A model generated the notes under the pieces. The model was not told where the DNA came from. It did no database searches and saw nothing but the letters and a program-made list of their open reading frames with translations. 44,332 bases of DNA from Escherichia phage EK99P-1. Numbering within the stretch: position 1 is the stretch's first letter; every line of letters begins with the position of its first letter. The stretch lies in the sequence record NC_024783.1; one strand, written 5' to 3'. The position numbers and the translations under genes were made by a program. Below, piece after piece: positions 10,169-42,020 of this stretch.

Positions 10169-10894
10169 ATGGGTTATCAACTTCCTAACGGGTCCAGCGT
10201 CCAGATTGGGTCCGTACTGGGTAGCGGCATCGCTGTTACGGCAGCTACCAACGCCGCCGCGTCTATCTCTGATCTTACGAAAGGTTGCGTTATCACCTGC
10301 GCGGCTTCTCATGGCCTGAAAGTCGGCGACGTGGTAATGTTCACTAAAACCCCGTGGGTACGTGCGCTGAACCGAGCGTTCATCGTGGGTAAAGTGGCTA
10401 CCAACGACGTTACGCTGGCGCGCTTCGACACCTCGGACGTGACCAAATATCCTACTGGCGCGTTTGGGGCAGGCACTCCGGGCGAAGTGGTGAAGGTGTC
10501 GAGCTTTATCGACTTCCCTTTCATTACTAACGTTGCCGTATCCGGTGGGGATCAGCAGACGACCACCTTCCAGCCGTTACAGGTGAACACCGCAATCAGT
10601 CTGAACACCACGAAAAACCCGTTTGTTCAGACTTACACCTTCACCCACGACGAAGAAGACCCGATCCGCCCAATCCTGGAAGACCTGGACGGCACACAGA
10701 AAACCACTGTGATTAAGTTCACTAACCCGGCAGCGGCAAGCGGCAAAGGTGAGATCCGTATTTACCCGGCTAAGGTATCTTTCCAGAAGATTCCATCGGC
10801 TGAAGTAAACAACGTGGAGACGGTGGAGTCCACCCTCACTATGCAGTCCGATATGGTTATTTACCGTAAGGACCTGGTTGAAGCGCTGTCGTAA
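10169..10894 (+). CDS. major tail protein
   Basis: 241 aa, RBS AGGAG, followed by a strong terminator and the G/GT chaperone pair. Confidence 0.75.
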   Translation: MGYQLPNGSSVQIGSVLGSGIAVTAATNAAASISDLTKGCVITCAASHGLKVGDVVMFTKTPWVRALNRAFIVGKVATNDVTLARFDTSDVTKYPTGAFGAGTPGEVVKVSSFIDFPFITNVAVSGGDQQTTTFQPLQVNTAISLNTTKNPFVQTYTFTHDEEDPIRPILEDLDGTQKTTVIKFTNPAAASGKGEIRIYPAKVSFQKIPSAEVNNVETVESTLTMQSDMVIYRKDLVEALS

Positions 10895-10924
10895 TTTGGT
10901 CGCTTAAATAGCGGGTGTTAATAT

Positions 10925-10948
10925 GGGGCCAGTACGGCCCCTTTTTTA
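10925..10948 (+). terminator. rho-independent terminator after major tail gene
   Basis: GGGGCC-agtac-GGCCCC followed by TTTTTTT. Confidence 0.7.
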
Positions 10949-10963
10949 TTGGAGAATTACATA

Positions 10964-11326
10964 ATGGCTAAAGCACCACTCTTTACACTTGACCCTAAAC
11001 CGACTTTTAAGCTACCGATTGAGATCCCGCGCCCCGGAGAAAACGAACCTGGCAAAATGACGTTTACCGTGCGCCACCGTCCGATCGACGAGTTTTCGCA
11101 GACCATGCAGGATACTGAGCGCAAGTTGTCAGAATATGACGACAATGACCCGGACGGCTTTAATGTTATGGTCGAGGCCATCATGCACGTCGCAGAAGGC
11201 TGGAATCTGCCGGACGAATTTAACGCGGAGAACGTCCGCCGCTTGGTGGTCAACTACCCGCGCGCGTTCGGCGTGTTCCATACGTCGTACTATCTCGAAC
11301 TGATGGGATTGCGTGAAAAAAACTAA
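10964..11326 (+). CDS. tail assembly chaperone G
   Basis: 120 aa from the ATG at 10964 (RBS GGAG). Acidic protein ending at a slippery A AAA AAC heptamer. Confidence 0.75.
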   Translation: MAKAPLFTLDPKPTFKLPIEIPRPGENEPGKMTFTVRHRPIDEFSQTMQDTERKLSEYDDNDPDGFNVMVEAIMHVAEGWNLPDEFNAENVRRLVVNYPRAFGVFHTSYYLELMGLREKN

Positions 11327-11640
11327 TTGAGGCGGCGCGACGCTTTTATGGCCCGCCGCCACCCTCCGAAGATTTAGCCGCGAGTTTATGGGGCGCGACA
11401 CCTGAAGACGTGTGTCCGCCCGTTGCGCTGTGGCCCGACAACGCGAAGGTAGTCGCAGTCTTCACAGATTGCTCCACGCAATGGCGTACCGGATTTGGCG
11501 GGGCATACGGCATCGACTACGGCGTACTGGAATGGTTATTTAAGATGCACGGCATCGAAAACGCGCAACGTGCGTTTAAAGATATCAAGCTAATGGAACG
11601 CGTTGCGCTGGATGAAATGGCGCGGCAGAACCCCGCATAA
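10964..11640 (+). CDS. tail assembly chaperone GT fusion (programmed -1 frameshift product)
   Basis: The -1 frame is open from 11317 to the stop at 11640. A slip at 11317-11323 joins G to the downstream frame. Confidence 0.6.
11317..11323 (+). other. slippery heptamer A_AAA_AAC for -1 ribosomal frameshift
   Basis: gaA AAA AAC TAA at the end of G. The -1 frame continues open for 105 codons. Confidence 0.6.
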
Positions 11641-11956
11641 CGAAGCGGGACAGGCGGGAAGTACCGTTTTGTCCCGCCTCTGTAAAACCGCATATCTAAT
11701 CACTTTCATTGCATAAACTCAAAGCGGGACAGGCGGGACGTCCCGTTTTGTCACGCCCTGTAAATGTGCATACCTATGCAGATTTCGTGCATAAACCAAA
11801 CGGGACAGAAAGCGGGACAAACAAGAGGCGGGACAAAGCGGGACAGCACCCCGTCCCAGCCAGTGCTGCCGCGGTTTTCAGCCGATCGGGACAGCGGGAC
11901 AGCACCCCAGTCTTTCAGACTAGACGGGGGTCAGTGGCCCCCCTCGTCTGAGACTG
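11641..11956 (+). repeat. GCGGGACA iteron region with terminal long hairpin (copy A, extended)
   Basis: About 10 GGGAC(A) units on one strand, several short GGGAC..GTCCC palindromes. The last 169 bp (11788-11956) are repeated at 39166-39334. Confidence 0.8.
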
Positions 11957-12024
11957 AATAAGGTTTGTTTTGAAATCGCTGATACAATATCCATCGGCAA
12001 CTGCATAAAAAAGGGGACTGCATA

Positions 12025-14667
12025 ATGGCAGATCAGGCAGCAGGCATCACGCTAAAGGCTGATGTTGCACAAATCAGAACGGCAAATACTGTGCTGGACT
12101 CCTTCGCACAGAAATCCGAGAACACAGAAAACAAGGTTAAGAAATTAAACGACACCCTCGGCAAATCCAAAAAGGTGACGAGTGACGCCGCGGGCGGAAT
12201 GGAGAAGCTGGCGACTGAATCGCAGCGCGCCGCCGATGGCATGACGAAACAGGAGCGACTTGCCAACAGGTTAGGCATGTCGACCAAAAACCTGGGCTTT
12301 GCCTCGCGTAACGCCGCATTCCAGTTACAGGATATCGCAGTTACGCTTGAGATGGGGATGCCTGTTCACCGCGTCATGCTTCAGCAGTTACCGCAGCTAA
12401 CTGGGGCGTTTGGCGGACTGGGAAACACGCTGCGTTATGTCGTCGGCACACTCGGCCCGTTAGGGATTGGCATCGCTGCATTAACGGCAACGCTCGGCGT
12501 AGGGGTGGCAATTACGACCCGCGCAGAGAACCAGGTGGCGGCGCTTAATAAGACGCTGGCGCTGTCCGGTAATATTTCAGGCCTGACAGCTAACCAGATC
12601 CTTGTGCTGTCCGAGAACGCCGAGCGCATGGGCGGGTCATTTCGCAAGACGCGTGACACAATCCAGGCGCTGGCGGCGGCGGGTGTGAAAGCGGGTGGTG
12701 ACTTTGGCGCATTGGCTAAGGTAGTGAATGACTTTGCGAAGGTGTCCAGCCAGCCGATCGAGGATGTGGTGGCGGCGGTGGCGAAGCTGTCAACCGACCC
12801 GGTAGGCGGCTTGCGCGCACTGGCGGATAAGTATCACGTCGTAAACGAAGCGCAGATCCAGCAGGTACAGTCGCTGGTTGATGCGGGTCGTGAGACAGAC
12901 GCAGTTGCGTTGGCTAACAAAACAGCCGCTGCGTCGTTCACCAGCATGACCAATGAGATCAAGGCGAACATGGGCACGCTTGAGCGGTCTATGAACGTCG
13001 TCACATCGGCAGCTAAATCGATGTGGGACGCTATCCTGGATGTGGGCCGCGCGCAGTCCTCCAATGAGTCCGAGATGAAAGCGCGCGAATCACTACAGCG
13101 CATGACCACGGCATACTATGCCGAGATGAAAGCGGTAAACGCTGCCGGTGGGGTAATGACCGAAGCGCAGAAAGCGCGTATTAACATGCTTTACAGCGAA
13201 CTGGTCGCCCAGGAAAAAGTAGTGGCGTCGCTCACCCTGCGTAACCGTGCGGAGCGAGACAACGCCCGCGCCGCGGACGAATCAGCAAAGGCGAACGAGG
13301 AGGCCAACCGCACCGCTCGCGACCGCGCCGCGTTCGAGAAGGAGTACGCAACTAACGCGAAGAAGCGCGCTGACGAGATCGCCCGCCTCAATTTGCTGAA
13401 TAAGCGCGGCGTTATCGACGAGAAAGAGCTTGCTGAGGCGGTGAAGCAGGTAAACGAGCGTTACAAAGACCCCGCCCCGAAGAAGGCCGCGGCTGTTCGC
13501 GTGGATGCCGGTATGAAAATGCTGGAAGTCGCACGGAGCGAACTGGCCCAGCTTCGAGAATCCGGCAAGCAGATCGAAGCCAACGCATCGACGCAGACCC
13601 GAACGCAACGCGCTCAAGCGGCCTTAAACAAGCTGATCGCGGATAATGAGCAGTTAATCGCCGCAAGCAAAGAAAGAGCGCTAACGGCAGCCGAAAAGCA
13701 GCAATTAGTCGAGTTCGGGCGCGTGAAGGAAGTCCGCGAGCAGATCGTCGAAGAAGCCAAATTGCTGGACGCGAAAGAGAAGCAGGTTAAGGCGCACGCG
13801 CAGATCGATGCCTTCGTTAAGAACCAGAACGCCGAACTAAAAGCCACCGCCGCGGGCTATGCCCTTTCCACTCGCGAAGCGGCAAACCTGCGCGAAGAAT
13901 TGCAGCTAATCGACCGCCTGAAGCGTGTAGGCGCTAACGATACCGATATCGACAAGGCGGTGTCTAAGCTGCGAGAAGTGCAGGAAGCACAGACCGGCGC
14001 TAACGCCTCGTTATGGGATGGATTCAGTCGCGGGCTTAAGGATAGCGTGGATGAGATGGGTAACGGATATACGCAGATGGCGTCTCTCACGAAATTCACA
14101 TTCAGCGCTATGCAGGACACGATGAACGAGTTTTTCGAGACTGGCAAGCTGAACGCAAAGGATATGGTTAAGTCCATCCTGAGCGAATTAATCAAGCTGG
14201 CTACCTCGCAGGCGTTCAAGTCCATCGTTAGCGCTTTCGGTGGTGACGGCGGCAAAAACGGATTGTTCGGCGCTATCTTCTCTGGCCTTACTAAGAATGC
14301 GGACGGCGGAGCGTACGCAGGAGGCAATCTCGCGGCCTATTCGGGGAAAGTGGTAAGCCAGCCTACCTTTTTCAGTTATGGCGTCCAGGCGTTCGCTAAG
14401 GGCGCTGGGTTGATGGGTGAGGCTGGACCCGAGGCCATCATGCCACTGAAGCGCGGGCCGGACGGGAAACTGGGCGTTGCCGCGTCTGGCGCAGGCGGTG
14501 GTATGGTCGTGACGACTAACGTTTACACGGGGACTGGTAAAACGGATACCAGTGTCAGCGGGCCGGACCCCCGTACTGCGCAAGCGTTCGGCAAGCAAAT
14601 AACCGAGGCGGTGAAGGCCGAGATCGTGAAAGCTACGAAACCGGGTGGAGTACTTTACAAACGATGA
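12025..14667 (+). CDS. tail tape measure protein
   Basis: 880 aa, Ala- and coiled-coil-rich with a Gly-rich C-terminal part, directly after the G/GT chaperone genes. Confidence 0.85.
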   Translation: MADQAAGITLKADVAQIRTANTVLDSFAQKSENTENKVKKLNDTLGKSKKVTSDAAGGMEKLATESQRAADGMTKQERLANRLGMSTKNLGFASRNAAFQLQDIAVTLEMGMPVHRVMLQQLPQLTGAFGGLGNTLRYVVGTLGPLGIGIAALTATLGVGVAITTRAENQVAALNKTLALSGNISGLTANQILVLSENAERMGGSFRKTRDTIQALAAAGVKAGGDFGALAKVVNDFAKVSSQPIEDVVAAVAKLSTDPVGGLRALADKYHVVNEAQIQQVQSLVDAGRETDAVALANKTAAASFTSMTNEIKANMGTLERSMNVVTSAAKSMWDAILDVGRAQSSNESEMKARESLQRMTTAYYAEMKAVNAAGGVMTEAQKARINMLYSELVAQEKVVASLTLRNRAERDNARAADESAKANEEANRTARDRAAFEKEYATNAKKRADEIARLNLLNKRGVIDEKELAEAVKQVNERYKDPAPKKAAAVRVDAGMKMLEVARSELAQLRESGKQIEANASTQTRTQRAQAALNKLIADNEQLIAASKERALTAAEKQQLVEFGRVKEVREQIVEEAKLLDAKEKQVKAHAQIDAFVKNQNAELKATAAGYALSTREAANLREELQLIDRLKRVGANDTDIDKAVSKLREVQEAQTGANASLWDGFSRGLKDSVDEMGNGYTQMASLTKFTFSAMQDTMNEFFETGKLNAKDMVKSILSELIKLATSQAFKSIVSAFGGDGGKNGLFGAIFSGLTKNADGGAYAGGNLAAYSGKVVSQPTFFSYGVQAFAKGAGLMGEAGPEAIMPLKRGPDGKLGVAASGAGGGMVVTTNVYTGTGKTDTSVSGPDPRTAQAFGKQITEAVKAEIVKATKPGGVLYKR

Positions 14668-36466: not shown

Positions 36467-36796
36467 ATGAATATCAACGACGCAATCGAAATGTTAACTA
36501 AGACTGTTTGCAGTGAAACAAGCCGGTCCTGGGCGTATACCGATGCCGTGGGGGCGGTGCTATTTGAAATCGAACGCCTGCGACTCACCGAAAAAGAATT
36601 GCGCGCGAAGCTGGAATTACTCAACGGTACGGCAGCCAGCAAGCTGCAAAAGCACAATGAAGAAATGGAAGAATACAAAAAGCAGGTTATCCGTCTACGT
36701 GAGGAAGGTAAATCCTGGGCTATGATCGCCGAGCTAACCGGAATCAACCAGAGCACTGTGCGCTCCTGGGTACGCAATAATAAAACTTCCAAATAA
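36467..36796 (+). CDS. small HTH DNA-binding protein (candidate early regulator)
   Basis: 109 aa. C-terminal helix-turn-helix GKSWAMIAELTGINQSTVRSWV. First gene after PR. Confidence 0.55.
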   Translation: MNINDAIEMLTKTVCSETSRSWAYTDAVGAVLFEIERLRLTEKELRAKLELLNGTAASKLQKHNEEMEEYKKQVIRLREEGKSWAMIAELTGINQSTVRSWVRNNKTSK

Positions 36797-36806
36797 GGCT
36801 ACGACC

Positions 36807-39071
36807 ATGAGTTTAATTAAATTCGCCGTAACAAGACCCGCTAAAAAAGGCGAAAAAGCCAGGGCGGAAAACCTCCAGATGACCACCGATGAATTTTTCG
36901 AATTTATCAAAGATGCGAAAGAAATCTCATCGGTGCATATCAACAAGACGGAGGATAAAGCCGAGTATGCGCGCCGCAAGCGTAAGGCCGATGGCATCGT
37001 GGCATATACCAGTGACGGACTTCGCCGCAAGACCAGTGCGGTGGACCGCTCGATCCTGTTCTTTGATATTGACCGCACCGACACCCGCACCCTACGCCGC
37101 TGCCGTAAGGCGTTCATTGACGCGGGTCTGGAACACGTATTTCACACCACAACCGGCGACCGTCACCCACTGAAAGGCGGCACGCGTTGCGCCCGTTTCC
37201 TGGTGTTAACTGACAAGCCTGTACCGGCGGAAGACCTGGGCCGCGCCCAGTATGCCTTGTTAGCCCAACTGGGTCTGTCCGATGTGGACTTCGACGATTG
37301 CACGAAAGACACAAACCGCCTTATGTACCTGCCACACCAGCAATCTGTCATTAAATGCCACTACGGCAAGCGCGCCCGCGTCCGTCGTCTGCTCCGCCTG
37401 GCGGACAGGCTGGGAGTTGAGAAAGAGGAAGTGCGCCGCGAACTAACCCAGGGTGATGACGGCATGGCGGACGGTATTCTGGATTGGTGCTTCCAGGCAG
37501 GATTCGAACCGCTGTCGTCCGGTCGTGGTTATGAAGTTCCATGCCCGAACGAACATCTGCATAGTGGCGAAGGGTCCACCGCTATCATGGTTAAGGATGG
37601 CGAGATCCGTTTCAAGTGTATGCACACCGGCAACGAGTGTTGCTCGGAACTGAATAGACACCAGCACCTGGCGCTACGTCTCATCGGGATACCGGACCAC
37701 CTGAACGTCGAGCCGCACAACATGTCCCGTAAGCAAATCGCCGCCATCCTCCCAGGGCTGGACGACGAGGAAGTCGAATCCTTATATGAACATATTGTTG
37801 ATGCGGTTGGCGACGGCGAAGAATACGGCGTGTGCACCGATGCGGATCTGGATAACGAGCCGGTTGCGCTGTTCAGCAAGCACGACCCGATTATCGAGGG
37901 GTTGATTAACTTTAAATCAACTTGGTATATGGCTGGCGAGTCGAACATCGGTAAGTCTTTCTACGTGCTGGGGCAAATGGGTGCGGTTGCCGCGGGGATT
38001 CCGTTCGGTGGCGCGAAGGTAGTCCAGTCTCATTGCTTCTATTTCGATGCGGAAGGTGGCGAAGCCTCTAACCAGCGTAAGGAAGCATTGCAGATCAAAT
38101 ATGAGCACGATCTCGACAAGCTGCACATTATCGACCTGCAAACTCGCGGCTGGGATATCACCAGCAAATCCGGCTTGCGTGAAGTTATCAGCTTTATCAA
38201 CCGCACCGCTAACGGCGAACCGGTTGGCCTGGTGGCATTCGACTCCCTCAACCAGACTGTTGCGTTGCGGTCCGCCGATTCTAAACCGTTCGACGAGAAC
38301 AACGCCAGCGATATGGGCGAAGTGGTCAAAGCGCTGAAGGCCATTGCGGAAAATACAGGCGGCAGTGCGGGCGTCATCCACCACCCGGCGAAAGGTGCAA
38401 ACGGCAGCAGATCTCCCCGTGGGTCCGGCGCGCTGCATGGTGCTGTCGATTCCGCGTTCTTCCTGGAACAGCCGGACGACAATCAGCCTGGTCAATTGAA
38501 CCTGTATCACGAAAAGGCACGTAACGGCATCAAGCAAGCGCCGCGCGGCTTCGTCCTGCTCAAGTGCAAAGTTAAGGTAGATCTCCGCAAGTCCGAGGCG
38601 TTCGAATCGCACCAGTCCACCAGCACCGGGCCTGACTTCGGCGATGTGGTTGCCGGTTGGGACGTCAAGCCGATCGCATCCACGCCACGCGACGAGACTC
38701 TGTATCTCGTACCGGTCGCCCTGGCACCGTTCGCCATCGAACAGGCGAAGGCGGCGGGCAAAGCAGCAGTTAAGGACGAGAATGCCGCAGGACCGCGCAA
38801 CGAAAAAGAGAAAGTGCTTTATGCGGCGCTGGAAAAACTGATGGAAGATAACCCGGACCATACCGGATTCAGTAAATCGGCAATCGTCCGCCAGGCGGGA
38901 TTGGCAAAAGGTGGCACATCGACGAAGGCAATAGACGATATGGTGGAGCGCGGCGTGCTAGGTTTTTATACAGATCCGCATACCGGGGCCATCTATGGGT
39001 CGTCGAATATCGTCATAAAAACGAATATACCCATCACGCTTTCGGCGACCGATGACGACCTTAAAGATTAA
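36807..39071 (+). CDS. DNA primase / replicative ATPase (primase-helicase-like)
   Basis: 754 aa. N-terminal primase-like region and central P-loop GESNIGKS. Large early replication protein. Confidence 0.55.
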   Translation: MSLIKFAVTRPAKKGEKARAENLQMTTDEFFEFIKDAKEISSVHINKTEDKAEYARRKRKADGIVAYTSDGLRRKTSAVDRSILFFDIDRTDTRTLRRCRKAFIDAGLEHVFHTTTGDRHPLKGGTRCARFLVLTDKPVPAEDLGRAQYALLAQLGLSDVDFDDCTKDTNRLMYLPHQQSVIKCHYGKRARVRRLLRLADRLGVEKEEVRRELTQGDDGMADGILDWCFQAGFEPLSSGRGYEVPCPNEHLHSGEGSTAIMVKDGEIRFKCMHTGNECCSELNRHQHLALRLIGIPDHLNVEPHNMSRKQIAAILPGLDDEEVESLYEHIVDAVGDGEEYGVCTDADLDNEPVALFSKHDPIIEGLINFKSTWYMAGESNIGKSFYVLGQMGAVAAGIPFGGAKVVQSHCFYFDAEGGEASNQRKEALQIKYEHDLDKLHIIDLQTRGWDITSKSGLREVISFINRTANGEPVGLVAFDSLNQTVALRSADSKPFDENNASDMGEVVKALKAIAENTGGSAGVIHHPAKGANGSRSPRGSGALHGAVDSAFFLEQPDDNQPGQLNLYHEKARNGIKQAPRGFVLLKCKVKVDLRKSEAFESHQSTSTGPDFGDVVAGWDVKPIASTPRDETLYLVPVALAPFAIEQAKAAGKAAVKDENAAGPRNEKEKVLYAALEKLMEDNPDHTGFSKSAIVRQAGLAKGGTSTKAIDDMVERGVLGFYTDPHTGAIYGSSNIVIKTNIPITLSATDDDLKD

Positions 39072-39165
39072 ATTTTGCGCGCATTGGTTGCCATTTTGGG
39101 TGTTTTTATCTGGTCGTATTGGTTGCCGTGTAGTGTAGATATAATGAATAGTTATGCAATAAAAC

Positions 39166-39334
39166 TGCATAAACCAAACGGGACAGAAAGCGGGACAAAC
39201 AAGGGGCGGGACAAAGCGGGACAGCACCCCCGTCCCGCCCCGGATGGCGCGGCCTGGAGAGGAGCGGGACAGCGGGACAGCACCCCAGTCTTTCAGACTA
39301 GACGGGGGTCAGCGGCCCCCCTCGTCTGAGACTG
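39166..39334 (+). repeat. GCGGGACA iteron plus long hairpin element (copy B)
   Basis: 169 bp directly after the primase gene. Both flanks near-identical to 11788-11956, 34-bp central core divergent, one loop substitution in the hairpin. Confidence 0.8.
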
Positions 39335-39493
39335 CATAAAATCCGGGATTGCAAAATACACGGCAGCATGTTGCGGATTGCGGTCGTCGCTGAACTAGGC
39401 AACCAATGCGAGATGCGGAATGGTGGGTGGAAAATGCAGTTTGCAGTCACAGCAGATAGCGATCAACTTTTTCATGCGCGTGATTAATATTGG

Positions 39494-39535
39494 TTGCATT
39501 CAATCCGGCACCCGGCTATATTGGTTGCACACCAA
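39494..39535 (+). promoter_or_regulatory. sigma70-like promoter with downstream palindrome
   Basis: ATTGGTTGCAT (-35 TTGCAT, 39494-39499), 17-nt spacer, TATATT (39517-39522), then TTGGT-tgcac-ACCAA (39521-39535) and RBS GAGGA. Confidence 0.5.
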
Positions 39536-39550
39536 CATGAGGACTGAACA

Positions 39551-40120: not shown

Positions 40121-40308
40121 TGATTCGACTAAGCGACCAGGTGACGGACTCCGAGCTTGCGGAGTGGATTGCCGAAGGGTGGGTCAGTTATCGTTACGGG
40201 CCGCAGGTATGGGCTATTAAGCGCTGCCGTTGTGATATGCGCCCGCATAACGTGCGCAAGTTTATACGCAAGCATGGGGTATTTCTGGAGGCCGAGAAAT
40301 GTTACTAG
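40117..40308 (+). CDS. hypothetical protein
   Basis: 63 aa, overlapping start (ATGATG). Confidence 0.4.
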   Translation: MMIRLSDQVTDSELAEWIAEGWVSYRYGPQVWAIKRCRCDMRPHNVRKFIRKHGVFLEAEKCY

Positions 40309-40429
40309 GCGACTTCCCGCAGGAGCTTATGGACCTGCATATGTGCGTACTTGAATACGAACAGAACGGCATTGCTACGGTATGCGATGGCGACACGAAG
40401 ACTATCGACGAGATTGAGGAGACTGAACT

Positions 40430-41026
40430 ATGAAATTACTATTCCGCCGTAAAGCTGACGGTCGCATCCTGAAGCCGATCCAGACCCTGGATTCATACGT
40501 CCGCTTACAAAACGCGGCAGGCAATCGGGTATGGTGGGCGAAGAAAGACAAGCTGCAGGAAGACTGCGATATTCTCACACACGATATTGAGCGCGGCGAT
40601 GTGCTGCGTGATATTCGCGACGGTAGTATGTGGATCGTCGAATATGTCGGTCTTCATGGCCTGCGTATGCAAAACCGCAAGGATGGCGTAGCCGGTATGA
40701 CTTACTTCGGCCTTATCAACTACGAACGAGTGGGCCGCAAATACAGCCTTCGGGATCGCCAGCCGCATGAGCGGGCGAGCGCCATAGCGGACGCAGTTAA
40801 CCGCGTAACGCATGACGTGGCGCAGAAGACGCGTGTAGATTTCACCCGCTACGACTCCCACCAGGTGCAAGCGAAGATGGGCCGCGCCGTACACCAAATC
40901 GTCAATCGCTTCGATGCCGTGACGAATGCACAGCGCCATGCGCAGGAATACGGTTTTGGATTCATCCGGGTAGAACGCGACGGCAGCATGAAAGCCATCG
41001 ACCCGCGCTCGGTGATTCTGAGATGA
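40430..41026 (+). CDS. hypothetical protein
   Basis: 198 aa, RBS GAGGAG. Confidence 0.5.
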   Translation: MKLLFRRKADGRILKPIQTLDSYVRLQNAAGNRVWWAKKDKLQEDCDILTHDIERGDVLRDIRDGSMWIVEYVGLHGLRMQNRKDGVAGMTYFGLINYERVGRKYSLRDRQPHERASAIADAVNRVTHDVAQKTRVDFTRYDSHQVQAKMGRAVHQIVNRFDAVTNAQRHAQEYGFGFIRVERDGSMKAIDPRSVILR

Positions 41027-41487: not shown

Positions 41488-41778
41488 ATGGATAAGCTAA
41501 ACGAGTGGTTATTCGCCATTGCGTGTCTTGCTGGTGGCTTCGTAGGCGCACGCATTCATGGCGAGGCAACGAAAGGGCCGTTGAACTTCGTTTTATATGT
41601 CGTAGTTGGATTCCTGTGCGCCATATTTGGTGCGCCAGCTATCGCCGAGTGGGCTGGTTTATCTGGCGAGCGCACTGTCGCCGGTTTGGGCTTCGTAACT
41701 GCTATCTTCTGGATGCCAATAGCCGCCCGGATCAGGGAGACTATTGAGTCGTTCCGACTTCCGGGGGGCGCAAAATGA
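41488..41778 (+). CDS. holin (putative)
   Basis: 96 aa with about three TM segments, immediately upstream of a second membrane protein and the endolysin. Confidence 0.55.
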   Translation: MDKLNEWLFAIACLAGGFVGARIHGEATKGPLNFVLYVVVGFLCAIFGAPAIAEWAGLSGERTVAGLGFVTAIFWMPIAARIRETIESFRLPGGAK

Positions 41779-42020
41779 TTATCTCCGTCCTGTTGTTTGT
41801 TATCATAGGGGCTTCGTCCCTGTTTAACGTGTATGCGCCGTCCGTCCAGGATGGCTTCTTCGGTCGGGTGTTATATCTGCTAACGGCAATGACCTGTATT
41901 GTCGGTCTGTTGCAAACAGGAGACGTATCTGACACCACCTGGACCGCGTTAATCTGGTTGTTTGCATTGCGCACGCTGCGTAATGCTGTTTTGAATGGGG
42001 TAAAACATGCGATTCAGTGA
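41775..42020 (+). CDS. second holin / antiholin-like membrane protein
   Basis: 81 aa with two to three TM helices, overlaps both neighbours. Confidence 0.45.
   Translation: MIISVLLFVIIGASSLFNVYAPSVQDGFFGRVLYLLTAMTCIVGLLQTGDVSDTTWTALIWLFALRTLRNAVLNGVKHAIQ

Follow-up and report, generated by a model that had tools for sequence, protein, structure and literature searches.

The genome of Escherichia phage EK99P-1 (NC_024783.1) carries two related arrays of a short GGGACA unit, one in a 384-bp non-coding gap between the tail assembly chaperone and tape measure genes (region A, 11641 to 12024) and one in the non-coding DNA downstream of the primase-helicase gene (region B, 39072 to 39550). The stretch analyzed (here, the window) is 44,332 bp long and constitutes a complete genome of a Dhillonvirus, one of the HK578/SO-1-like virulent Escherichia coli siphophages. 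We interpret both regions as arrays of the origin type, bound by the replication machinery of the phage, with region B as the primary and region A as an auxiliary array, and assign this reading a probability of roughly 0.55. The interpretation is based on the position of the copy in region B, on the helicase-linked arrays found in other phages, and on a permuted control motif that displays no such link. The anatomy, conservation, and duplication age of both regions are described here; also new is the finding that CGGGACA arrays are specifically associated with AAA_25 helicase genes across phages. What was already known is descriptive: the GenBank record of phage SO-1 (GQ502199) annotates region A (11214 to 11597, with gp16 on one side and the tape measure gene on the other) and region B (40178 to 40657, after the helicase/primase gene) as repeat_regions with direct, inverted, and palindromic repeats that resemble each other. 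These sequences are orthologous to those of the window, and the SO-1 annotation makes no link to helicase genes in other phages. No functional study of either region was found in the literature on SO-1, HK578, Dhillonvirus, or the motif (motif matches were unrelated primers), and to our knowledge neither the replication origin nor late regulation has been mapped in Dhillonvirus.

The core of each array is a 174-nt repeat on the + strand, present as copy A (11788 to 11961) and, with 89% identity, as copy B (39166 to 39339). Both copies contain six direct CGGGACA units with identical start-to-start spacings (12, 16, 10, 48, and 8 nt) and share the same terminal palindrome. In copy B, the units occupy 39179 to 39279, the first beginning at 39179 versus a helicase stop codon at 39071. 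In copy A, four direct units lie at 11801 to 11845 (+ strand; spacings of 12, 16, and 10 nt) and two further direct units at 11887 to 11901 (+ strand). The four-unit block sits on a T-free stretch (11797 to 11851) that is followed by an inverted GTCCC (11853 to 11857), and its CGGGACA units are invariant in 31 sequences. Across the window, CGGGACA occurs 23 times versus 6.4 expected, a count reached by none of 100 shuffles, and 15 of the 23 copies fall within the two regions (nine in 11646 to 11901 and six in copy B). A cluster of short units beyond chance, as in iteron origins, is present. An array next to a replicative helicase gene is found for copy B, while region A lies between tail genes.

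Region A begins after the stop codon of the gpT-like open reading frame (ORF) at 11640 and ends before the tape measure ATG at 12025; small ORFs annotated within it by some records are broken by one-nucleotide indels among relatives. An earlier interpretation made from the letters of the window only (the sequence-only reading) had described an unusual 385-bp, non-coding, iteron-dense insert at this site, and the gap was confirmed at 384 bp. The two modules that it had placed upstream of copy A also exist, although they are longer than the ~60 bp proposed, measuring 79 bp (module 1, 11643 to 11721, + strand) and 78 bp (module 2, 11722 to 11799, + strand). Module 1 consists of an imperfect palindrome of four GGGAC half-sites (11645 to 11678; GCGGGACA and GGCGGGAA, followed by ..CCG and TTTTGTCCCGCC) and then an AT-rich spacer. 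Module 2 is a tandem copy of module 1, likewise ending in an AT-rich spacer, with 80% identity overall and 92% across the first 36 nt. GCGGGACAGGCGGGA opens both modules (11645 to 11659 and 11724 to 11738), and TGCATAAAC terminates each. Both of the palindromes reported earlier were recovered: GGCGGGA (11653 to 11659) pairs with TCCCGCC (11672 to 11678) in module 1, and the perfect 12-mer CGGGACGTCCCG is found at 11734 to 11745 in module 2. In most relatives, CGGGACGTCCCG also forms the center of module 1, while in phage jat, AAAAC replaces AGGC in the left arm of the module, giving a nearly perfect palindrome that is annotated as a repeat_region. The record of phage WFI instead annotates the module palindrome as a putative terminator. 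The right arm of each module is complementary to units 3 and 4 of copy A.

Beyond its last units, copy A carries a long interrupted palindrome of 49 nt (11908 to 11956, + strand; CAGTC..TCAGAC..GGGGG-loop-CCCCC..GTCTGA-GACTG) with invariant arms and a hypervariable apical loop. None of the 19 predicted pairs of the 11908-11956 hairpin covaries; thus, RNA structure and DNA site are not distinguished at this palindrome. Region A ends in an AT-rich tail of 68 bp (11957 to 12024, + strand; GC 0.375 to 0.45), which includes the tape measure ribosome-binding site, an extended -10-like TGATACAAT (11980 to 11988), and one copy of TGCATAAA (12002 to 12009); a 43-bp segment of this tail is absent from copy B. 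Throughout region A, GC-rich iteron blocks alternate with AT-rich spacers (GC 0.33 to 0.38). The TGCATAAA motif had been said to recur on both sides of both copies of the 174-nt repeat. This holds after correction of some positions by a few bases: the five copies in the 44-kb window (11710, 11788, 12002, 39166, and 39333) all fall within regions A and B, with ~1.5 expected by chance and five reached by 1 of 100 shuffles.

In addition to copy B, region B holds TATAAT at 39141 to 39146, TGAATAGTTATGCA at 39146 to 39159, and five ATTGGTTGC sites. A TATAAT or TATAGT is conserved ~20 nt upstream of copy B. ATTGGTTGC is found 14 times in the window versus 0.58 expected, nearly always in intergenic DNA (6044, 6058, 22154, 24955, 26853, 26870, 29827, 36267, 39083, 39118, 39399, 39489, 39520, and 40039), with zero copies in region A. 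The motif of transcription type can thus be separated from the GGGACA motif. ATTGGTTGC often occurs within TATATTGGTTGCAcACCAA, an inverted repeat (TTGGT-N5-ACCAA) that overlaps a -10-like TATATT. It is probably a phage promoter or operator motif, perhaps bound by a 109-aa helix-turn-helix (HTH) protein encoded at 36467 to 36796.

The two regions are conserved throughout the genus. Regions A and B are present in all 157 GenBank records of Dhillonvirus relatives, 150 of which cover at least 80% of region A. The opposing scenario named in the sequence-only reading, a recent insertion absent from close relatives, is thus not what was observed. In alignments of 15 to 16 relatives, 82 to 83% of GGGAC-unit columns are invariant versus 55 to 56% of other non-coding columns, and the region A gap is conserved about as much as the flanking coding DNA. 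Region A is conserved and under selection. Identity is higher between orthologous copies (0.886 for A to A and 0.872 for B to B) than between A and B (0.77 to 0.79). The two regions therefore form orthologous sets, indicating that the duplication is older than the genus and that both copies have persisted, with gene conversion playing little part. Evidence for concerted evolution of A and B is marginal (0.788 within a genome versus 0.774 between genomes, p = 0.014). The element is missing from 5,426 E. coli genomes, and the GTDB genomes contain only two chance matches, in high-GC bacteria; thus, it is neither host derived nor mobile. Exact patterns of a 26-mer and a hairpin 19-mer retrieved only ~44-kb Dhillonvirus contigs from IMG/VR.

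Several individual records show variation at region A. The most divergent relative, LM40P1, has an additional clean hairpin followed by T5 (GGCCGGgtaattCCGGCCTTTTT, ~11425 to 11450) after the gpT stop codon and before the modules, as well as additional GGGAC units. In phage TH11 (MT446389.1, 15227 to 16512), a 515-bp tandem duplication with the junction CTGCATA comprises the end of gpT and all of region A. We consider this duplication to be probably an assembly artifact (the record is labeled UNVERIFIED), with a real duplication through TGCATAAA repeats being possible. The record of CHD5UKE2 (NC_073059.1) starts and that of Kente (OX460974.1) ends inside the 174-nt repeat of region A, most simply because assemblies break at a two-copy repeat.

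Outside the genus, the same unit marks the 3' ends of replicative helicase genes. When IMG/VR was scanned by motif only, for three CGGGACA units in close succession, at least 117 non-Dhillonvirus loci were retrieved, and a control scan with the permuted 7-mer CGAGGCA retrieved 120. In many of the CGGGACA loci, a 400-nt stretch of non-coding DNA holds 8 to 18 units, which occur in both orientations and are frequently arranged as direct units, a CACCCC..GGGGTG palindrome, and then inverted units. A homologue of the helicase ATPase domain (tblastn with the primase-helicase of the window, 22 to 31% identity) was present in 35 of the 117 loci listed versus 1 of the control loci. The array lay no more than 1.2 kb from the homologue in 33/117 versus 0/120, and units in both orientations were found in 44 loci versus 1 (Fisher p = 5e-12 and 6e-15 for CGGGACA against the permuted control). 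Among the 35 helicase-bearing loci listed, the array began between ~20 nt before and 60 nt after the helicase stop codon in 32. When the neighborhoods of 51 array loci and the window were clustered, the helicase was the only widely shared gene family (36/52). No homologue of the 109-aa HTH protein was found at the other array-bearing loci examined, and the protein was rejected as a common partner of the arrays. Pfam analysis of ten further array loci identified replicative helicases or primase-helicases in eight (four AAA_25, two VapE-like, and two D5/P4-alpha-like). In the latter four, CGGGACA arrays are located just downstream of superfamily 3 (SF3)-type primase-helicase genes (VapE-like in L048 and L125; D5/P4-alpha-like in L106 and L129).

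A comparable layout with another iteron was found in Burkholderia phage BcepGomr, in which an array (2762 to 2960) directly follows a RepA-like helicase gene (gp62). Here, direct and inverted copies of GAAAAATAAAT surround a palindrome, CCCCTTTAGGGG / CCCCTCTCCCCTTTAGGGGAGGGG, in the manner of the GGGACA arrays. The same layout with a different iteron would be expected if iteron sequence tracks initiator specificity. Judged from these sequences, short-iteron arrays at the 3' end of a replicative helicase gene are a general feature, and the arrays of GGGACA type represent one widespread version of it. In the replication modules of lambda, P22, SPP1, N15, P4, and SaPIs, this is the classical position of a phage or satellite origin. 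An AT-rich stretch beside the array is modestly enriched in the other phages, with the lowest-GC 40-nt window at the median 14th percentile, and intergenic DNA is AT-rich anyway. In four metagenomic phages (L034, L066, L087, and L120), the helicase ORF continues through the array to give tails rich in RD and GT, such as ..RDNRDNAGHERDMSPDKKRDGRD. In these loci, the helicase C terminus may truly overlap the array, or else the gene calls overextend through a stop-free array.

The candidate reader of the GGGACA units is the primase-helicase itself, a 754-aa protein encoded at 36807 to 39071 (+ strand) with an AAA_25 (RepA-like) ATPase domain at residues 357 to 531 by Pfam. Its N-terminal third contains conserved DxD and Cys/His (Zn) motifs, which we read as primase-like. 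The C-terminal domain is predicted by AlphaFold2 to fold as helix-helix-helix-strand-strand with a mean predicted local distance difference test (pLDDT) score of 72. Foldseek matches to this model are weak (E 0.06 to 0.5), with the top ones examined mostly to winged-helix DNA-binding domains (those of linker histone, MarR, and LexA and the N-terminal domain of RIO2). Based on the predicted fold, it is plausible that the C-terminal domain is an origin-binding domain and that the primase-helicase reads the GGGACA units. The helicases linked to arrays in the other phages have a conserved C-terminal WRxxFY..KKAFxRA domain. A sequence search of the PDB returned no match for the window helicase or for the C-terminal domain of the other helicases.

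In the mechanism that we infer, from protein binding and the identity of the binder to origin activity and the particular auxiliary role, the GGGAC(A) units would be bound as double-stranded DNA by a replication protein of the phage. This protein would most likely be the 754-aa primase-helicase, with its predicted C-terminal winged helix making the contact. Region B, directly downstream of the helicase gene, would be the primary copy. Region A would be an auxiliary copy, combining the six direct units and terminal palindrome of region B with two palindromic four-unit modules and their AT-rich spacers. Region A might be a second initiation site, might cooperate with region B as P4 crr does with ori, or might form a tightly bound roadblock like SPP1 oriR, which is proposed to stall forks and to bring about the switch from theta replication to concatemers. 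The array might be insulated from late transcription by the terminator-like palindromes on its left and by the extended -10 on its right, from which transcription of the tape measure gene would restart. Among the functions suggested in the sequence-only reading, a second replication site is the best supported, given copy B after the helicase gene, the helicase-linked arrays elsewhere, and the negative control; initiation at this site is presumptive.

A broader view, which we hold only tentatively, is that GGGACA arrays constitute a widespread, undescribed class of origin tied to AAA_25 helicases, with the Dhillonvirus region A copy serving as a replication-protein roadblock. The 7-mer would then have been kept across hosts of ~48% to 70% GC even though the helicases are ~25% identical, and only Dhillonviruses would have added another copy, enriched in palindromes, in the gap that separates the chaperone gene from the tape measure gene. 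The roadblock, to forks or to RNA polymerase, could switch replication to the concatemer mode or tie distal tail expression to the replication state. Dhillonviruses are E. coli siphophages that are isolated very often, with members in the BASEL collection and in candidate sets for phage therapy. For this commonly isolated genus, the analysis provides concrete candidates, with region B as the origin and region A as an auxiliary site. A 7-mer array at the 3' end of AAA_25 genes may also serve as an annotation rule by which origins are located in phage genomes from metagenomes, and it raises the question of how one iteron persists across such divergent helicases. For engineering purposes, the 384 bp between the chaperone and tape measure genes represent a conserved cis element in the tail operon, and insertions there should not be assumed to be neutral.

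The closest parallel to this arrangement is found in SPP1, which has two similar origins ~13 kb apart, both bound by gp38 (PMC6316719; PMC3485210). The second SPP1 origin is a non-coding segment that interrupts late structural genes and has transcription signals on both sides, and gp38 bound at oriR has been proposed to stall forks and thereby drive the theta-to-sigma switch (PMC6316719; PMC3485210). Like the phage of the window, SPP1 is a virulent siphovirus with a genome of 44 kb; it packages DNA by a headful mechanism, and its origins are composed of direct repeats and AT-rich DNA, one of them at the initiator gene. Of this dual-array layout, the two arrays were confirmed in the window, the second between the chaperone and tape measure genes, while the flanking terminator and promoter are pattern-level candidates. 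SPP1 differs in using the initiator gp38 and the DnaB-type gp40 rather than an AAA_25 primase-helicase, in the sequence of its repeats, and in the location of oriL inside the initiator gene, whereas copy B follows the helicase gene. Binding and initiation have been demonstrated experimentally for SPP1; the arrays of the window are known from their sequence.

Satellite phage P4 offers another parallel. The P4 alpha protein, studied by Ziegelin and colleagues and by Yeo et al. in 2002, is reportedly a primase-helicase with a C-terminal winged-helix origin-binding domain. P4 iterons are short and clustered at two separate sites, of which crr consists of tandem direct repeats. The likeness thus extends to a single primase-helicase with a C-terminal winged helix (predicted for the window) and to iterons at two separated sites. 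In contrast, P4 alpha is of the SF3/D5 type, unlike the AAA_25 helicase of the window, its iteron is TGTTCACC, and a distance of 4.5 kb separates ori from crr within the replication region. In the pri-rep-ori modules of staphylococcal pathogenicity islands (SaPIs) and phage-inducible chromosomal islands (PICIs), the origin is directly downstream of the helicase/initiator gene and short iterons flank AT-rich DNA. Plasmid iteron origins are served by winged-helix initiators (RepA, RepE, and pi), with direct repeats binding monomers and inverted repeats binding dimers, a division that parallels the direct units and palindromic modules of the window. Both the island and the plasmid systems rely on other protein families, and plasmid iterons are usually 17 to 22 bp long and in helical phase, whereas the window units are 7 to 8 bp with irregular spacings of 8 to 16 bp.

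A number of observations weigh against an origin-type role. The C-terminal domains of the Dhillonvirus helicase and of the other array-linked helicases show no significant profile similarity (hhalign probability 0.6%), and one conserved reader domain would not readily account for the occurrence of the motif beside more than one helicase superfamily. Salmonella phages of the SP-031-like group, the nearest other genus, lack a GGGACA array even though their helicase is 43% identical. Among the matches listed, no non-Dhillonvirus contig contained a second array, leaving region A without a parallel there; the region A copy therefore looks genus specific. GC skew in the window points to neither region A nor region B, as it follows gene orientation and is thereby confounded. 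Other features fit a function at the RNA level equally well: the units of the 174-nt repeat are all in the orientation of transcription, G-U pairs favor the + strand, and a -10 is conserved upstream of copy B. Moreover, the arrays of other phages lie in what would be the 3' untranslated region of the helicase mRNA.

These last points bear on several alternatives that invoke transcription. It is possible, though somewhat doubtful, that region A punctuates the late transcript as a cassette of terminator and promoter, through which the amount of chaperone would be adjusted relative to the tape measure and distal tail proteins. In this scheme, the TTTT-trailed GC palindromes and the 11908-11956 hairpin with the T-rich tract that follows it would terminate transcription, stabilize the upstream mRNA, or be cut by RNase III, and TGATACAAT would restart transcription. 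The annotation of CGGGACGTCCCG followed by TTTT as a putative terminator in WFI, the extra hairpin and T5 after gpT in LM40P1, and the invariant arms and variable loop of the 11908-11956 hairpin are consistent with this, as is the folding of region A relative to shuffled sequences (z = -6.1 for the + strand versus -3.75 for the - strand). TGATACAAT is also invariant in relatives (TACAAT in 15 relatives) and stands at a suitable position ahead of the tape measure gene, and the analogous oriR segment of SPP1 is likewise bracketed by transcription signals. However, a consensus scan of 10800 to 12400 returned no + strand terminator and no sigma-70 promoter. A pattern scan for Rho-independent terminators in 11641 to 12024 gave matches on the - strand only, and neither a consensus sigma-70 promoter nor a + strand terminator was found in region A or B. 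The T-run comprises only four T residues and is lost from module 2 in many relatives, and the extended -10 pattern is as frequent in the window as chance predicts. Hairpins would also leave unexplained the six direct, invariant 7-mers, their conserved spacing, and the helicase-linked arrays of unrelated phages. Punctuation of the transcript may coexist with an origin role. A late promoter or activator site, as the sequence-only reading had suggested for the insert, has weak support: the extended -10 at the right edge is conserved, making a promoter there possible, but ATTGGTTGC, the widespread intergenic motif, is absent from region A. In its explicit form, GGGACA would bind a phage activator of promoters at B (lysis and head genes) and at A (tape measure and distal tail genes), which we judge to be quite improbable. 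Both regions do lie upstream of a late gene block, the gene immediately preceding that of the helicase encodes an HTH protein of 109 aa (Sigma70_r4_2/HTH_23), and a possible -10 lies downstream of the region A array. Against this, the HTH protein is without homologues in the other array loci, the only good -10 of region B is upstream rather than downstream of the array, and the arrays of other phages track helicase 3' ends whatever follows.

An RNA element is an improbable alternative. The 174-nt repeat would then be an RNA with GGGACA (GGA-containing) motifs, acting in cis on antitermination or processing, as do HK022 put and lambda nut, or in trans as a small RNA or a protein sponge. Both copies are oriented like the surrounding + strand genes, TATAAT/TATAGT precedes copy B by ~20 nt, and copy B sits where the early helicase operon gives way to the lysis and late genes. 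The folding z-scores are significant, and the G-U pairs of the module stem exist only on the + strand, where AGGC alternates with AAAAC opposite GTTTTG. Nevertheless, covariation was found in no stem, and Rfam 15 gave no match at the gathering score in the window (in 11500 to 12100, only a chance miRNA match, E = 0.52). Units occur in both orientations in the modules and in the arrays of other phages, as is typical of double-stranded DNA sites; no U-tract terminator delimits a discrete RNA; and the association is with a replication gene rather than with operon starts. Least probable, in our view, is that the repeats form a pac recognition site or a functionless, selfish repeat resembling a miniature inverted-repeat transposable element. 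The pac sites of P1 and SPP1 consist of short repeated motifs flanking a central region, a layout that the repeats resemble; TGCATAAA flanks the 174-nt repeat on both sides, and the two GenBank records mentioned above begin or end inside it. However, record ends within a two-copy 174-bp repeat are expected assembly breaks. For a relative, PhageTerm predicted headful packaging with no site named, and the authors oriented genomes at terS (PMC9022532). No link to the terminase was found, and the packaging site proposed by the sequence-only reading is therefore unlikely. A mobile selfish element is made less likely by the absence of the repeat from the 5,426 E. coli genomes and, two chance matches apart, from the GTDB genomes; moreover, each phage genome has only two copies, which occupy fixed orthologous positions and are subject to purifying selection.

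Other identities considered for the motifs were rejected. CRISPR-repeat mimicry was suggested by the similarity of ATAAACC to the type I-E 5' handle, but on inspection, the hairpin and the handle are not adjacent. By eye, none of G-quadruplex, sigma-54 promoter, or DnaA, TyrR, MetJ, and LexA boxes fits.

The SP-031-like Salmonella phages display two copies of GTGAATAGTTATG directly after the helicase stop codon (at 18 to 50 in the record of SaI_NFG_5579), to which the single TGAATAGTTATGCA just upstream of copy B is similar. From this resemblance, TGAATAGTTATGCA/GTGAATAGTTATG may represent a second conserved origin or promoter element. In Salmonella phage SaI_NFG_5579, ~450 bp are repeated at both ends of the record (1 to 450 versus 41555 to 42008), splitting the region downstream of the helicase gene; the repeat reflects either terminal redundancy or an untrimmed circular assembly.

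The genome is colinear with that of phage KarlBarth; a 1-kb query region is 95 to 96% identical to phages BMA1, mckay, and bob. Terminase, head, tail, and fiber genes occupy 1 to 25 kb on the + strand, and genes for DNA polymerase, single-stranded DNA-binding protein, nuclease, helicase, and methylases occupy 25 to 36 kb on the - strand. From 36.4 kb, the + strand encodes the 109-aa HTH protein, the 754-aa primase-helicase, small genes, and lysis genes, followed again by terS. Region A is preceded by the gpG-like tail assembly chaperone (10949 to 11326, + strand; Pfam Phage_TAC_4, E 1.7e-23) and its gpT-like frameshift extension (11326 to 11640, + strand; Pfam DUF1799, E 2.7e-21), the SO-1 equivalent of which is annotated as gp16. 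It is followed by the gene for the tail tape measure protein (12025 to 14667, + strand; Pfam TMP_2 and Tape_meas_lam_C). A strong intrinsic terminator (GGGGCC..GGCCCC followed by TTTTTT) is located at 10925 to 10941, directly 3' of the major tail protein gene, where a terminator is the usual device for lowering the expression of downstream tail genes.

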